A stretch of 64,000 nt of DNA from Candidatus Uhrbacteria bacterium (lineage in GTDB: Bacteria > Patescibacteriota > Patescibacteriia > UBA9934 > GWF2-40-263), in NCBI GenBank assembly GCA_014239775.1, contig JAAZYG010000022.1:2218-66217 (forward strand), given 5' to 3'. The notes beneath the pieces were generated by a model. That model did not search any database and was not told where the DNA came from. It was given only the letters and a program-made list of their open reading frames with translations. The position numbers and the translations under genes were made by a program. This document shows positions 16,988 through 63,670 of the stretch, in pieces. Within the stretch, counting starts at the first letter, position 1, and the number at the start of each line of letters is the position of its first letter.

Positions 16988-17455
16988 ATGGCAGATTCAC
17001 AAAAAACATTAGTACTACTTAAGCCAGACGCATTACAAAGAGATTTACTTGGTCAAATCGTTACTCGATTTGAACGAAAGGGCATGAAAATAGTCGCTAT
17101 GAAGTTTATAAGATTATCAGAAGAAATGTTGTCAGAGCACTACTCACATTTAGCAGATAAACCATTTTTTGATAGCCTAAAAAAATTCATGATGCAAACA
17201 CCTGTAGTTGGAATGGTGCTTGAAGGGTATGATGCTGTTAATGAGATTAGAAAAATTGTCGGATCAACAAACCCCCGCGAAGCAGATGCTGGAACAATTA
17301 GAGCAGATTTTTCAATGAACGTTCCGTCAAATCTGGTACACGCTTCAGACTCACCAGAAGCTGCACAGTCTGAGATTGAGAGATTTTTTACAGATGCTGA
17401 AGTGTTTAATTACGAAAAAATTACCGATAAATATATTTTTGGAGAGGGAGTGTAA
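16988..17455 (+). CDS. ndk: nucleoside diphosphate kinase
   Basis: LVLLKPDALQR and the NxxHASD active-site His motif. Confidence 0.9.
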   Translation: MADSQKTLVLLKPDALQRDLLGQIVTRFERKGMKIVAMKFIRLSEEMLSEHYSHLADKPFFDSLKKFMMQTPVVGMVLEGYDAVNEIRKIVGSTNPREADAGTIRADFSMNVPSNLVHASDSPEAAQSEIERFFTDAEVFNYEKITDKYIFGEGV

Positions 17456-17465
17456 TACGAGTGGT

Positions 17466-17500
17466 AGCAGCGGTGCTTTGACGCCGCTGTTTTTATTTGG
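17466..17500 (+). terminator. rho-independent terminator after ndk
   Basis: CAGCGG(tgctttgacg)CCGCTG followed by TTTTTATTT. Confidence 0.5.
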
Positions 17501-17563
17501 TAGCATTCTTTTTGTGTTTACTAAATTAAGGTATACACAAATCCTGTGAGGAGGGAGATATAA

Positions 17564-17797
17564 ATGGAAGAAGTAAAGACTGGAATTATTGAGTCTGTAA
17601 AGCCACAAGGAGGTCTTGGGGTTCGGAAAAAGTATATTACCAGCTTGGAAGAGCTGGGGGTTATTGATAGAGCAATGTCTGATGTGTTTTTAATCTCAGG
17701 CACACCTGTCTCAGACATACATACATACGCAAGCATAGTTGCTCGTGGACTTGATTTGCAATTGCAGTTACCATCACCTCCACACCTAAAGGTCTAA
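17564..17797 (+). CDS. hypothetical small protein (77 aa) with strong RBS
   Basis: GAGGAGGG lies 9 nt upstream of the ATG. No recognisable motif. A hairpin plus T-run (AGGTCTAacTAGACCTTTTTT) follows its stop. Confidence 0.4.
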   Translation: MEEVKTGIIESVKPQGGLGVRKKYITSLEELGVIDRAMSDVFLISGTPVSDIHTYASIVARGLDLQLQLPSPPHLKV

Positions 17798-17884
17798 CTA
17801 GACCTTTTTTATTTTATTAAATATCTTGACTAAAACGTATATTTTATGTAGGTTGTTATGTGCTCTAGCTTAAGAGGGAGGCTC

Positions 17885-19009
17885 ATGAAAGAATGGATTG
17901 AATTACAGAAATGGCAGCAAGATTGGTTGCCAAGCACAAACAAACCAGCAGACTTTAAGGATTCTATAGAAAAGAGACTTCTATTACTAGAAAGATCTCC
18001 ATTTGTGGATCGATGGTCTTTTACTCAGGCAATTCAGGCGGTCCGTACTGCTCGTTACTTGCTCATTCAAAATTTTGCATACGGATTTACCAACGAGCTC
18101 CTGCTCGATTCAAGTATTGCATCCACTCCACATCTAAGCAGGTTGCTTACATTGGCACAGAGAGGAAGTGGTGTATTTGATGTACAGCGCCGTTTCGAAG
18201 CTTTGTCATTATTTGATCAGGCTCTTAGTGTGGCAAAGATTGAACGAGAAGATCCTCTTGAATCAATTGGTCATAATCTAGATCAATTCATTGATTTGTT
18301 GTCCGGTTCAATTTTTAGGAACGGGTATAGTAAAGTAAAAATTTATTCATACCATGATCCTGAAAATGAATATGAAGTACCAGCAGGTAATGTTGGTGTT
18401 GGAAAACAATTGCGACGTAGGGGAATGTCTCAAAAACTTCACAGGCTTACGTGTAGGCAGCAAAAAAACAAAGAAATTGTTTTTATGCATCACAGAATCA
18501 AAGATCCATTTAAGACATGGCTTAAGATGCAGAAACAAGTGATGGGAACATTTAGGTCTGAACCATATCAAATTCATGACAGATGTGGTTTGATGTTTAT
18601 TGTTCCAAGACGTAAAAGTGTGAAGATTATTGCAGATAAAATTATTAATCTTGCAATAAGAAATGGTGCTATTATTTGCGAAACATTTCAATCCAATTAC
18701 GGAAAGAGTGAGTTCGTAGATCCACCAAACAATGCATCGTCATCCAGATATAAGGTGGCAAAAGTATGCATTCATTGGAACGGTCATTTTATTGAGTTAC
18801 AATTCATGACCTTCTATGATTATTTTTCAAGCACCAGATCACTTTCTGATGTTAATCATGAACTTTATAAACTCAAACAGTCTTATCAATGTTTTTTCCC
18901 ATTGATTTGGCCAAAAGAAGTTTATGGAATCGACTGGAACAATGGCAGTATAATAAGTCAGATGACCAGATGGAAAAAAGCGCAGATTGGATGGTGTGTC
19001 AAAGACTAA
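17885..19009 (+). CDS. divergent RelA/SpoT-homolog (RSH)-like protein: degenerate HD-like N-terminus plus synthetase-like nucleotidyltransferase motifs
   Basis: HHRIKDPFKTWLKMQK aligns to GRVKRLYSLYKKMTK of the Rel at 62171-63670. HDRCGLMFIV aligns to DLIAIRIIV. YKVAKVCIHWNGHFIELQFMTF...HELYKLKQ aligns to YQSLHTTVFTDNGEIVEFQIRT...AHWRYKQ. N-terminal SPFVDRWSFTQAIQAVRTARYLL resembles the HD motif region HPFITHPVAVAYKLA but lacks the histidines. Strong RBS GAGGGAGG precedes the ATG at 17885 (the ORF track starts at the upstream ATG 17858). Confidence 0.5.
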   Translation: MKEWIELQKWQQDWLPSTNKPADFKDSIEKRLLLLERSPFVDRWSFTQAIQAVRTARYLLIQNFAYGFTNELLLDSSIASTPHLSRLLTLAQRGSGVFDVQRRFEALSLFDQALSVAKIEREDPLESIGHNLDQFIDLLSGSIFRNGYSKVKIYSYHDPENEYEVPAGNVGVGKQLRRRGMSQKLHRLTCRQQKNKEIVFMHHRIKDPFKTWLKMQKQVMGTFRSEPYQIHDRCGLMFIVPRRKSVKIIADKIINLAIRNGAIICETFQSNYGKSEFVDPPNNASSSRYKVAKVCIHWNGHFIELQFMTFYDYFSSTRSLSDVNHELYKLKQSYQCFFPLIWPKEVYGIDWNNGSIISQMTRWKKAQIGWCVKD

Positions 19010-19012
19010 TAA

Positions 19013-19064
19013 ATACTTATTTTTTAAGTATCTCAAACAGTTTATTTAATTGAACTGTTTTTTT
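19013..19064 (+). terminator. two tandem hairpins after the RSH-like gene
   Basis: ATACTTattttttAAGTAT, then AAACAGTT(tatttaattg)AACTGTTTTTTT. Confidence 0.5.
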
Positions 19065-19072
19065 ATAGGATC

Positions 19073-19201
19073 ATGTGGAAAAAACTGTGGATTATTCTGT
19101 GTATCACAAGTGGACTATTCACCCTTTTAAAACTTGCAAGAATTTGTGAATATGGTAATTTTAATTATGCCTTACGGATAGGTGGGTACACTAAAAGATA
19201 A
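19073..19201 (+). CDS. small hydrophobic peptide candidate (42 aa)
   Basis: Encodes MWKKLWIILCITSGLFTLLKLARICEYGNFNYALRIGGYTKR, with one predicted TM helix. AGGA lies only 2 nt from the ATG. Not in the ORF track because it is under 60 aa. Confidence 0.2.
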   Translation: MWKKLWIILCITSGLFTLLKLARICEYGNFNYALRIGGYTKR

Positions 19202-19638
19202 ATCAATAATTAGGTCTGTGAATGCCAAGCTTAGGCAGGGCAAAAGGACACTATAAGGTTTAAACTGTTTAAATGTGGACGACATGGTGGTCAGACAAGC
19301 TGCTATCATCGCCGCAGAACAGTAGATGATAATTCGAGGATGTGCAATTTATCGACTACATCAAAACCTATAAAAAATATAACTTTAATAATTACCCATC
19401 TCACCGTTAGGCGCGAATAAGTTACACTGGGATACAGTGTGGCCCAGAGGATCACGATTGCTTTTGCATGAATAATCCAACCGGCCACAGTGCATCTCAG
19501 TTTTATTTTACACAAATTTTATAATCGAAGTGTTGGGTGGTTATTTAAATCTATTTCAGTAAGTATTTTCAAAAGTGGATCTGCATAAGCAAAAATAATT
19601 ATTGATGATAAATAGTTTGTTTGTTATAGTTTTTTTGT

Positions 19639-20748
19639 GTGATAAAAGAAAGAGTCAAACAATTTATAAGATACAAACAAGTCAAGAAGTTTGTTGAGAA
19701 AAATGAACGTGTACTACTACCAGCAATGTTGATTGTTGGTGTTGCAGTTGATTTTATAACTTTCAGATCAATTCAAATTAGTGTAGCGTTTTCAATTCTC
19801 TTTGTATACACAATTGTTGCAGGAGCTACGATTGTGTTTTTAAATTTATATAAAGAACATTGGAGTCTGAATCCAAACTTAATTACACGGTATTATAGAC
19901 TTGTTGCACCGCTCATTATTCAGTTCACGTTCGGTGCTCTTTTGAGCGCTTCGCTTATATTTTATTGGTTTAGTGGTGCGCTTTCTATAAGCTGGCCATT
20001 CATTCTAATTATAGCAATATTAATTGTTTCAAATGATGTTTTTAGGGAGCACTATTTAAAACCTACAGTTCAGATTTCTGTATACTTTTTTATTATCTTC
20101 TCGATAATCTCATTAATACTTCCATTCCTGCTTAACTCAATTAGTCCATGGATTTTTCTTATAAGTGGTTTGGTGGCATTTGGAATTATTTATTTATTTG
20201 TTAATCAGCTTTCAAAAAGATCTCTCCTTGTTTTGGAACATCGTTCTATACTTTTAAAGAGTATTAGTATAATTTTTATTCTTATGAACGGTTTGTATTT
20301 TTTTAATGTATTACCTCCAATTCCGCTAGCATTAAGAGATGCGGGTGTTTATCATAGCCTTCAACGCATACAAGGATCCTATTATCTAGACACTGAACCA
20401 GAATCTGTTATTGAAAAGATTGTGCCAGGACAAATAATTCATGTACAAGGCTCAAAAAGCATTTATGTTTTTTCATCGATCTTTGCACCAGCAGACTTGA
20501 ATACAACAATTGTGCATGATTGGGAATTTTTTGATGCAACTAAGCGAGAGTGGATAAGTAAAAGCAAGCCAAGCTACAAAATTTCAGGAGGACGTGAGGG
20601 TGGTTACCGTGGGTTTTCTAGTGCGGTTATTGTGCCCGGTAAATGGCGTGTAAGTGTTCAGACATTGAGAGGGCAAACACTTGGGCGCGTAAAATTTAAA
20701 GCTATTTATGCTGAGGATGTACTTGAGTATAAACAAATAATCAAATAA
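19639..20748 (+). CDS. membrane protein with C-terminal soluble beta-rich domain (DUF-like)
   Basis: GTG start. Several TM helices, then the domain ...GGREGGYRGFSSAVIVPGKWRVSVQTLRGQTLGRVKFKAIY. Confidence 0.6.
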   Translation: MIKERVKQFIRYKQVKKFVEKNERVLLPAMLIVGVAVDFITFRSIQISVAFSILFVYTIVAGATIVFLNLYKEHWSLNPNLITRYYRLVAPLIIQFTFGALLSASLIFYWFSGALSISWPFILIIAILIVSNDVFREHYLKPTVQISVYFFIIFSIISLILPFLLNSISPWIFLISGLVAFGIIYLFVNQLSKRSLLVLEHRSILLKSISIIFILMNGLYFFNVLPPIPLALRDAGVYHSLQRIQGSYYLDTEPESVIEKIVPGQIIHVQGSKSIYVFSSIFAPADLNTTIVHDWEFFDATKREWISKSKPSYKISGGREGGYRGFSSAVIVPGKWRVSVQTLRGQTLGRVKFKAIYAEDVLEYKQIIK

Positions 20749-62147: not shown

Positions 62148-62172
62148 AAATAGGGCTCATGGCCCTATTTTT
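62146..62172. terminator. bidirectional terminator AAAAATAGGGCtcatgGCCCTATTTTT between parB and rel
   Basis: Perfect stem with symmetric A-run and T-run, between convergent genes. Confidence 0.6.
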
Positions 62173-63670
62173 ATTTTTTACCTCTTTCTCTTCCTTTAAG
62201 AACTTCTGCAAACCAACCTTTAACTGTGTTTTTGGTGGCTTCTTTTATTTTGTTTCTAGCATGTCTAGTTTTAACAAATTTCATCCAATCTGGATTAGGT
62301 CCTTTTCTATTTTTATCAGTTAAAATTTCAATAATATCACCAGAATTTAGTACAGTATCTAGATTTTTCATTATGTCATTAATTCTTGCTGACACACATT
62401 TATTTCCTACTTCAGAATGAATTGCGTATGCAAAATCTACAGGCGTTGCTCCTTCAGGTAGATCAATTACATCACCCTGTGGGGTAAAAACAAATATACG
62501 ATCATTAAAGACGTCTATTTTCATGAACTCAAGTTGCTCTAAAAAGTCTTTTTTTGTTTCTAGTTCTTTTTGAATTTGAGCTAGTTCCTCAATCCATCTG
62601 GTATTTTTATTATCAAGTGATCCATCTTGTTTGTACCTCCAATGTGCCGCTACTCCATATTCAGCCAATTCATGCATTTCAGTTGTCCTGATTTGAAACT
62701 CAACTATCTCGCCATTGTCTGTAAAGACTGTTGTATGAAGCGATTGGTAACCGTTTGGTTTTGGTTGTGCAAGATAATCCTTAATACGACCAGGAACAGG
62801 TCTCCATTTTTGGTGTAACATTCCGAGCACTGAATAACATTCCTCTACATCGTTTACAATAATTCTAATGGCAATTAAATCATATATTTTACTCAAGTCA
62901 CCATGGTATTTGGTCATTTTTTTATAAAGACTATAAAGTCGTTTTACACGTCCGTGCACCTGAACTTCTTTATGTGATGAGTGTAGTAATACTTTTTCTG
63001 TTTCATCAATTATTCTACTTACATATGCACCTTTTTCGCGAACTTTAATATCCATGATTGTTTTCATTCTTTCATATTCTTTTGGTTGTAGATATGCAAA
63101 AGATTGATCCTCAAGTTCACCTTTAAATTCACTCATACCCAAACGGCTGGCGATGGGCGCAAAAATCTCTAAAGATTCACGTGCAATACGTTCTTGTTTA
63201 TGTTTAGGTTGGCCGTATAGTGTCTGTAGGTTATGTAGTCGATCTGCAAATTTCATAAAAACTACACGCACATCACTTGCCATGGCTAAAAACATTTTCT
63301 GTAAATTTTCTGCATATCTCTCTACTCCACGGTATTTTACAGATTGCTTTAGTTTGGTGACGTTATAAACCAATGACGCAATATCATCACCAAATAATTT
63401 TTTTAAATCTTCAATTTCAAAATCTGTATCTTCAACAATATCGTGTAGCAATCCGGCCATAACAACATTTAAATGCAAACCCATATCAGCTAATTTATAA
63501 GCTACAGCTACAGGATGCGTTATAAATGGATGACCAGTTAATCTCATCTCACCTTCATGTGCCTTTCTTGCCATTTCATAAGCACTACGTAGTGTTTTTA
63601 TGTCAGGATTAACATAGTTTCTTTCAACCAAATCCTCTAATTCTTCATATGTATATACAATTGCACTCAT
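62171..63670 (-). CDS. rel: short bifunctional-type Rel (RSH): HD hydrolase, synthetase and TGS domains, lacking the distal C-terminal domains
   Basis: HD motif HPVAVAYKLADMGL...AGLLHDIVEDT. Synthetase motifs GRVKRLYSLYKKM, DLIAIRIIV and YQSLHTTV...EFQIRT...AHWRYK. TGS-like VFTPQGDVIDLPEGATPVDFAYAIHSEVG. 499 aa. Confidence 0.9.
   Translation of the reverse strand: MSAIVYTYEELEDLVERNYVNPDIKTLRSAYEMARKAHEGEMRLTGHPFITHPVAVAYKLADMGLHLNVVMAGLLHDIVEDTDFEIEDLKKLFGDDIASLVYNVTKLKQSVKYRGVERYAENLQKMFLAMASDVRVVFMKFADRLHNLQTLYGQPKHKQERIARESLEIFAPIASRLGMSEFKGELEDQSFAYLQPKEYERMKTIMDIKVREKGAYVSRIIDETEKVLLHSSHKEVQVHGRVKRLYSLYKKMTKYHGDLSKIYDLIAIRIIVNDVEECYSVLGMLHQKWRPVPGRIKDYLAQPKPNGYQSLHTTVFTDNGEIVEFQIRTTEMHELAEYGVAAHWRYKQDGSLDNKNTRWIEELAQIQKELETKKDFLEQLEFMKIDVFNDRIFVFTPQGDVIDLPEGATPVDFAYAIHSEVGNKCVSARINDIMKNLDTVLNSGDIIEILTDKNRKGPNPDWMKFVKTRHARNKIKEATKNTVKGWFAEVLKGRERGKK

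Follow-up and report, generated by a model that had tools for sequence, protein, structure and literature searches.

Within a 64-kb stretch of genomic DNA from a Candidatus Uhrbacteria bacterium (the window, whose coordinates are used throughout), the gene at 17885-19009 on the forward strand encodes a 374-aa protein that we read, with a probability of about 0.6, as a deeply divergent enzyme with the synthetase fold of RelA/SpoT homologs (RSH), predicted from its sequence to be an active pyrophosphokinase and encoded by a monocistronic, vertically inherited chromosomal gene. RSH enzymes are central stress and growth-rate regulators of bacteria, and the same genome carries a bona fide bifunctional Rel, confirmed here at 62171-63670 on the minus strand (HD_4, RelA_SpoT and TGS domains). 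An initial annotation of this DNA had pointed to both proteins and had proposed that the one at 17885-19009 was a second, highly divergent RSH-like protein, possibly forming a toxin-like module with two small flanking open reading frames (ORFs); the RSH assignment held, and the module did not. Related loci fetched for comparison are denoted L0xx, and individual family members P0xxx.

Homology to the RSH synthetase domain was supported by both sequence profiles and predicted structure. A profile search of 1.84 billion cluster representatives returned 265 representatives at E <= 1e-3, including 58 at E <= 1e-30, and the family comprises at least 265 clusters at 50% identity and was seen, by genome-scan matches, in Candidatus Uhrbacteria / Patescibacteria. 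Twelve close homologues are 36-48% identical to the window protein; for deep comparison we used a family profile of 150 sequences (15-49% identity to the window protein), and a protein search run with the family alignment added one further member, P0156. No listed relative with precomputed Pfam domains has a match in the catalytic region, the single relative bearing a source name is called "hypothetical protein", and the 374-aa enzyme has no match in NCBIfam, PADLOC or PHROGs. The Pfam family RelA_SpoT (PF04607) aligns with residues 203-314 in register (profile positions 1-96; E 0.14), and a similarly weak match is found in just two of the 12 close members; distant members match better, again in register (E 1.9e-4 and 1.8e-3; best 22.1 bits). 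Against the sequences of the PDB, the only significant matches of the 150-sequence profile were nine distinct Rel/RelA proteins (E 7.9e-6 to 1.5e-3), the match reaching the helix that precedes the SYNTH core, where a "YHDP" block lies on a "YLNP" block. The larger profile was needed for these Rel matches; a HIN-domain match obtained from a 12-sequence profile was spurious.

Direct comparison with Rel gave the same answer. When the family was aligned by hhalign with the window Rel and 59 of its relatives, residues 155-329 fell on Rel 192-347 with 91.9% probability (E 7e-7), and the catalytic core taken alone matched SYNTH at 94% (E 1.5e-7), versus 0.1-0.4% for three negative-control pairings. 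The AlphaFold2 (AF2) model of the whole protein is of high confidence (pLDDT 89.4, pTM 0.87), and the top 16 Foldseek matches of this model were all RSH enzymes. RSH-fold homology of residues ~150-330 is therefore very probable.

The synthetase-like nucleotidyltransferase core (18329-18871, +; aa ~149-329) carries R204-x-K206...K214, D232, N282/S285/S286, E304-x-Q306 and H325-x-x-Y328-K329. The ordered motif blocks that the initial annotation had recognized as common with Rel correspond column for column in the profile-profile alignment: the donor-ATP block R-x-K-x(7)-K (R204/K206/K214) aligns with G-R-V-K...K-K-M of Rel, D232 with the Asp of Y-D-L-I-A-I-R, E304-x-Q306 with E-F-Q-I-R-T, N282 and S286 with the N and S of P-N-G-Y-Q-S-L-H, and H325-x-x-Y328-K329 with H-W-R-Y-K. 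Among the 150 members, conservation reaches 100% for K206 and D232, 99% for E304, 97% for Y328, 95% for K214, 94% for R204 and 75% for Q306, with N282, S285 and P343 each at least 90% conserved. In FaRel2, R64, K66 and K74 bind the triphosphate, D90 binds Mg2+ and the acceptor base is stacked by Y128. Throughout FaRel2, RelP, RelQ and Rel, the corresponding Arg and Lys residues hold the triphosphate of the donor ATP, and the Asp holds Mg2+ (PMC11782079). Because the donor-ATP residues, D232 and E304 are each conserved in at least 94% of the 150 diverse members, an active pyrophosphokinase is the likelier state of this protein. The catalytic Asp/Glu and R-x-K residues are thus intact and in register with Rel, and the description of this RSH as "degenerate" does not fit a family in which the active-site residues are the best-conserved positions.

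A second line of evidence comes from the gene lying directly upstream. This is ndk (16988-17455, +), which encodes a 155-aa nucleoside diphosphate kinase whose counterparts carry the Pfam domain NDK. By tblastn, ndk counterparts 68-81% identical to that of the window stand directly upstream of the enzyme gene in 19 of 19 close loci, usually with a gap of ~100 nt. The usual block is UDP-glucose dehydrogenase - ComEC - MBL - ndk - enzyme gene, followed by variable downstream genes. Over a broader range, each of the 26 loci that were examined in five of the seven sequence clusters has ndk immediately upstream, in three differing wider contexts. Four further clusters, obtained when the 150 sequences were grouped by identity, show this arrangement (P0060; P0072 and P0094; P0077; P0090), and P0033 is another distant member that does so, the linkage in distant clusters having been read from 10 individual look-ups. 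Upstream of ndk, the loci of P0072 and P0094 have an entirely different gene content (L32/NusB/RNase III in L023 and L024, MgtC in L027), indicating that the pair of ndk and the enzyme gene survives rearrangement of its surroundings. In addition, cluster-1 members of ~730-740 aa are extended at the C-terminus by a NUDIX domain (Pfam E 1e-10 to 5e-7) with an intact catalytic RE-x-x-EE box, and these fusions argue for a small nucleoside-polyphosphate product over a macromolecular target.

From these observations we propose that the enzyme would transfer a pyrophosphate, the beta-gamma group of ATP, to a 3'-OH, the acceptor most likely being a purine nucleotide, and would have a housekeeping or regulatory role, like that of a small alarmone synthetase (SAS), beside the bifunctional Rel of this genome. 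The ndk linkage would point to coupling with the pool of nucleoside di- and triphosphates, and the NUDIX fusions suggest a nucleoside polyphosphate product that a Nudix hydrolase could remove. A product of the (p)ppGpp or (p)ppApp type falls a little short of even odds. More doubtful is the extended proposal that Patescibacteria possess a hitherto unrecognized, ndk-coupled family of pyrophosphokinases making a noncanonical nucleotide messenger, with an acceptor other than GDP or GTP and with the Nudix fusions of some lineages as the "off" switch; if true, it would represent a second alarmone-type signalling pathway, parallel to Rel, in ultra-small symbiotic bacteria.

The core is flanked by family-specific helices that, in the proposed mechanism, would pack on it and probably regulate it: an all-helical N-terminal domain (17885-18325, +; aa 1-147) and a C-terminal helical extension (18872-19006, +; aa 330-374), in which P343 and W351 are among the best-conserved residues. 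The N-terminal domain had been likened to an HD pseudo-hydrolase; this resemblance was not supported, as hhalign against HD gave 0.4% and no Pfam HD match was found in 12 members; the protein gave no sign of the long RSH/RelA architecture with an HD domain (PF13328/PF01966), whether active or degenerate. Modelled alone, the domain reached a pLDDT of only 50, too poor for a fold search, and it probably depends on packing against the core.

Several observations weigh against the assignment of an RSH-like pyrophosphokinase. The Pfam RelA_SpoT score of 12.9 bits lies below the curated cut-off of 27, and the Foldseek TM-scores are low (0.25-0.45), which together place the family at the edge of the RSH superfamily. 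The acceptor-stacking G-loop Tyr of characterized alarmone synthetases and of FaRel2 (PMC11782079) aligns with the nonconserved A284, and the Arg found five residues after the catalytic Asp (D-x-x-G-x-R) is a Met or Leu in this family; the acceptor, or even the chemistry, could therefore differ from that of known RSH enzymes. Finally, two clusters lack an adjacent ndk (P0145 with P0156, and P0105), and ndk adjacency could reflect inherited gene order instead of functional coupling, since (i) most loci keep ComEC-MBL, (ii) ndk has its own terminator, and (iii) these two clusters do without it.

The strongest rival explanation, although an unlikely one, is a catalytically different nucleotidyltransferase on an RSH-like scaffold, which would carry out nucleotidyl transfer or the phosphorylation of a non-nucleotide acceptor (such as an RNA end, a protein or a precursor of the cell envelope), with ndk as a mere syntenic neighbour. 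In its favour, besides the sub-threshold RelA_SpoT score, are the acceptor-side residues, where the G-loop Tyr and the His of Y-x-S-x-H (aligned with the nonconserved R288) are replaced by a family-specific loop, N282-x-x-S285-S286...K293, within an N-x-x-S-S-x-x-Y-K-x-x-K block. A family Tyr, Y289, sits five residues past the aligned Tyr position in a loop of lower model confidence, and may functionally stand in for it. In the favoured reading, too, the enzyme may use an acceptor other than GDP or GTP, since the alignment column of the acceptor-stacking Tyr holds no conserved Tyr. However, the RSH-specific donor motif R-x-K...K on the helix after beta1, E-x-Q and H-x-x-Y-K are all conserved in register, and in RSH enzymes these residues hold ATP as a pyrophosphate donor (PMC11782079). 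Further, every top match, by sequence or by structure, is an RSH protein, and the NUDIX fusions fit a nucleotide-polyphosphate product. These features favour the pyrophosphokinase.

A second rival, raised in outline by the initial annotation, is a toxin-antitoxin or defence module of the toxic SAS (toxSAS) type, in which a growth-arresting (pp)pApp synthetase or tRNA 3'-CCA pyrophosphokinase would be neutralized by the product of a 77-aa or 42-aa ORF or, as in CapRel, by its own helical domains. The enzyme does have the RSH SYNTH fold of the toxSAS toxins (CapRel, FaRel2, FaRel, PhRel and Tas1) with an intact donor site. Its G-loop is noncanonical, and some toxSAS use non-guanosine acceptors, either ATP/ADP or the CCA end of tRNA (PMC11782079, PMC7229694). 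Its extra helical domains are compatible with cis-inhibition of the kind exerted by the cis-acting regulatory domain of CapRelSJ46 (PMC11782079), and a small ORF with a strong Shine-Dalgarno (SD) sequence and an AbiEi-like match below threshold (E 0.032) lies directly upstream. Nevertheless, we consider such a module very improbable. The 77-aa ORF is absent from 30 of 30 related loci and is separated from the enzyme gene by a terminator, while the 42-aa ORF coincides with the promoter and 5' end of a noncoding RNA (ncRNA), described later. Neither small ORF accompanies the gene in 27 related loci (26 compared as DNA, one as a gene table), and no conserved downstream partner gene was found, leaving the enzyme without the conserved two- or three-gene operon, antitoxin included, that marks toxSAS. 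The gene belongs instead to a conserved core-genome block (ComEC - MBL - ndk - gene) of small genomes, a setting in which a cis-inhibited, CapRel-like design fits poorly. Collections of phages, plasmids and viral contigs held no relatives of the enzyme gene and no match for the module DNA, PADLOC contained none, and in structure the protein resembles Rel, RelQ and RelP more than it does CapRel or Tas1.

An inactive pseudo-enzyme, serving as a regulatory scaffold that binds nucleotides or alarmones without catalysis, is most improbable. Extreme divergence from RSH proteins, which are 8-17% identical to it when aligned by structure, would suit such a protein, as would the absence of the G-loop Tyr, but pseudo-enzymes typically lose catalytic and triphosphate-binding residues, and here the catalytic Asp/Glu and the triphosphate-binding Arg/Lys are the most conserved residues across the 150 members. 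The enzyme gene is also under purifying selection: relative to the 98.4%-identical strain L031 it has 10 substitutions, nine of them at third codon positions, with eight synonymous and two non-synonymous changes (P <= 0.0012 vs neutrality). Judged from the conservation and these substitutions, the enzyme is not a decaying pseudo-enzyme. We rejected an AbiE-like toxin-antitoxin system, which consists of an AbiEii (DUF1814) nucleotidyltransferase and an AbiEi antitoxin with a winged helix-turn-helix, because that idea rests on one sub-threshold AbiEi match (E 0.032) and the enzyme itself has no PADLOC or Pfam match to AbiEii.

Compared with known systems, the RSH-like pyrophosphokinase proposed here stands apart from each. 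Relative to the small synthetases RelQ (YjbM/SAS1) and RelP (YwaC/SAS2), to which it is 11-16% identical, it has ~150 extra N-terminal helical residues and ~45 extra C-terminal residues, lacks the conserved acceptor-stacking Tyr and the arginine of D-x-x-G-x-R, scores below the Pfam threshold and has a fixed position beside ndk. Its best profile and structural matches are to the SYNTH domain of long bifunctional Rel proteins (B. subtilis Rel 8acu/6yxa, RelSeq 1vj7 and the window Rel), but it is a monocistronic 374-aa protein without the HD hydrolase, TGS or other C-terminal regulatory domains. Unlike the AbiEii/MenT-type toxins that are paired with AbiEi antitoxins, it has RSH-specific motifs and no small ORF conserved alongside. 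RSH diversity has been catalogued with hidden Markov models (HMMs), yielding 30 SAS subfamilies (PMC7229694). As the family falls below the Pfam RelA_SpoT threshold, we classify it as a new and so far unannotated form of the RSH synthetase fold and not as a member of a named SAS subfamily, and HMM-based RSH catalogues may have missed it for the same reason. Searches of the full-text literature gave no account of a family of this kind, or of an RSH-ndk linkage, in bacteria of the candidate phyla radiation.

Reduced genomes of the Uhrbacteria type have kept the family, with its catalytic residues invariant, its tie to ndk and its altered acceptor loop; if active, it would be a new branch of alarmone or nucleotide-pyrophosphokinase biology and would offer a way into the sensing of nucleotide supply by ultra-small symbionts. 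The analysis also removes a false toxin-antitoxin lead and reveals, alongside the enzyme gene, a conserved ncRNA without an Rfam family.

The Rel of this genome is itself short. Typical Rel and RelA proteins are ~730 aa long, with distal C-terminal regulatory domains; the window Rel has just 499 aa (HD, SYNTH and TGS) and lacks those distal domains, and its 120 listed relatives are all of similar length.

The start and expression signals of the enzyme gene were examined across loci. The open frame as such spans 17858-19009 (+), with an in-frame ATG at 17858; we take the ATG at 17885 as the start because M1 then coincides with the start of every homologue, and the 374-aa ORF stands as originally called. 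Its strong ribosome-binding site was likewise found as described: the SD sequence GAGGGAGG (17874-17881, +) lies 3 nt ahead of the ATG, and nearly all orthologous loci have a GGAGG-type SD ahead of this gene. The layout usual across loci is a hairpin and T-run terminator of ndk, a TTGAC(A/T) -35 box, a -10 box, ~45 nt, GGAGG and the enzyme gene; with a terminator followed by a promoter, the enzyme gene probably has a promoter of its own. In the window, the candidate promoter (17826-17854, +) consists of TTGACT at 17826-17831, a 17-nt spacer and TAGGTT. The claim of a dedicated promoter is thus supported by the -35-like box, for which a TTGAC(A/T) occurs at the matching position in most of 20 upstream regions of related loci; the promoter scanner made no call at 17826-17854, and the -10 element is uncertain. 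Strain L031 has a 4-nt deletion (GTAG; 17848-17851) within the putative -10, so that either the -10 assignment is in doubt or expression differs between the two strains.

A terminator had also been claimed on each side of the gene. On the upstream side, the scanner called an intrinsic-terminator-like hairpin at 17788-17807 (+), which closes the 77-aa ORF unit. On the downstream side, a possible terminator can be read from the sequence at ~19035-19066 (+), where a weak AT-rich hairpin of 7-8 bp is followed by a T-run, but this was not called by the terminator scanner. The GC content of the enzyme gene, said to exceed that of its surroundings, does so only marginally (0.369, relative to 0.354 +/- 0.031 for the long ORFs of the window); ndk has 0.368, and the mean of the 35%-GC window is 0.350.

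The 77-aa ORF (17564-17797, +) had been put forward as a strongly translated partner of the enzyme. The ORF exists and has a strong SD (GGAGGGAG, 6 nt ahead of its ATG), but it is missing from every homologous locus compared as well as from viral contigs, and is not part of the enzyme system; nor is the 42-aa ORF. It has no Pfam, NCBIfam or PHROG match, and its sole library match is the PADLOC AbiEi hit mentioned above, which covers 33 residues. Its sole relative is the same ORF in strain L031 (695-925). Between the two strains the frame stays open with 14 substitutions in 234 nt, six of them non-synonymous (P = 0.008-0.04 vs neutrality). With 6.0% substitutions, this ORF has diverged more than the enzyme gene (0.9%) and ndk (0%), and synonymous changes alone are ~5 times denser in the ORF than in the enzyme gene; this hot spot suggests recombination or a different history of the insert. 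Its codon-usage score of 0.30 falls between the distributions for genes and for non-genes, real genes scoring 0.37 +/- 0.12. The ORF is probably a real, young, lineage-restricted and fast-evolving gene, inserted between the ndk terminator and the enzyme promoter. Two ORFs of 76 aa (L020) and 61 aa (L027) upstream of distant members were compared with it and are unrelated.

Upstream of this ORF, the ndk terminator (17466-17506, +; hairpin 17466-17491 plus T-run) contains a promoter-like pair, TTGACG (17478) and TAGCAT (to 17506). A -35-like TTGAC(A/G) in the loop or 3' arm of the ndk terminator, with a -10-like hexamer right after the T-run, is present in the window and in L011-L013. In the window, this terminator-embedded promoter would drive the 77-aa ORF.

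Other loci differ around the enzyme gene in several ways. A conserved membrane ORF of ~300 aa stands between ndk and the enzyme gene in L010 (4961-5881) and L017 (3659-4558), the slot taken by the 77-aa ORF in the window, and the spacer seems to have received insertions repeatedly. Immediately downstream of the enzyme gene, L004 (5025-5483), L010 (7137-7655) and L017 (5845-6411) have an ORF of 150-190 aa without a Pfam match, in which the motif G-x-I-T-L-x-[QE]-A occurs twice; it is absent from the window. A NUDIX-fused distant branch (P0114, P0145, P0146 and P0157; 5001-7220 in L021/L022) has a Nudix box one residue longer, and in L021 the fused gene lies between photolyase and pyruvate kinase genes on an 811-kb scaffold. 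Seven loci (L007, L009, L010, L012, L013, L016 and L018) come from metagenome-assembled genomes that are GTDB representatives and are titled "uncultured Gammaproteobacteria bacterium", yet show the Uhrbacteria-type ComEC-MBL-ndk-gene block; these titles are probably mislabelled.

The remaining element of the proposed module was a hydrophobic 42-aa ORF (19073-19201), offered as a second partner. It runs through the promoter into the 5' end of a conserved ncRNA and, on the evidence of the aligned DNA, is not a gene but an artefact of repeat, promoter and ncRNA elements. Although the proteins of the loci compared are just ~45% identical, the stretch 19061-19424 is conserved in them as DNA, with 71% identity over 254 nt (nhmmer E 3e-27 to 1e-21). 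A six-locus alignment revealed three TGTGGATAA-like repeats, which resemble DnaA boxes, followed by a conserved promoter (19074-19161, +; motif matches at 19074 and 19086). The promoter boxes, read from the aligned sequences, are TTGCAA (19134-19139) and TG-n-TAATTT (to 19161), with the consensus TTGCA / TG-n-TAnnnT. The repeats are in tandem ~12 nt apart (19074-19118 in the window), occur at the same position in L001, L009, L012 and L013, and correspond, in reverse complement, to the DnaA-box consensus TTATCCACA; DnaA or another regulator could bind them, and no GC-skew switch was seen there.

The structured core of the ncRNA, ~250 nt long (19168-19418, +), is supported by nhmmer conservation and by a covarying closing helix of 19 bp, in which the 5' end (GCCUUACGG-AUAGGUGGGU) pairs with the 3' end (ACCCAUCU-CA-CCGUUAGGC). 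In this helix, 95.9% of alignment cells are paired, versus at most 47.5% in slid controls; seven pairs are changed on both sides, and covariation exceeded that in 500 of 500 shuffles. A long hairpin and U-run identified by RNA folding (19424-19510, +) is the probable terminator, and a hairpin with T-run after the core was also seen by eye in L001, L009, L011, L013 and L016. From 19202 to ~19510 the ncRNA covers ~310 nt of the 437-nt gap before the next gene. Neither tmRNA, RNase P, SRP nor 6S RNA was identified by cmscan or ARAGORN, and no Rfam family matched the window or L001 copies even at relaxed thresholds. A decayed copy of the ORFs found downstream of homologues was likewise rejected as an explanation for 19.0-19.6 kb, since no similarity was detected. 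The ncRNA is a separate gene and not part of the enzyme module. Counting the window, about nine distinct loci carry a copy (one a partial match), on the same strand as the enzyme gene and 0.05-5.6 kb downstream of it; copies were located in L001 (11575-11827), L009 (7303-7474), L011 (10416-10620), L012 (8504-8737), L013 (8087-8310), L014 (7820-8053) and L016 (5772-5999). The copies are ~170-250 nt long with a multi-hairpin interior, and half of them end in ...GGC-N-CCA.

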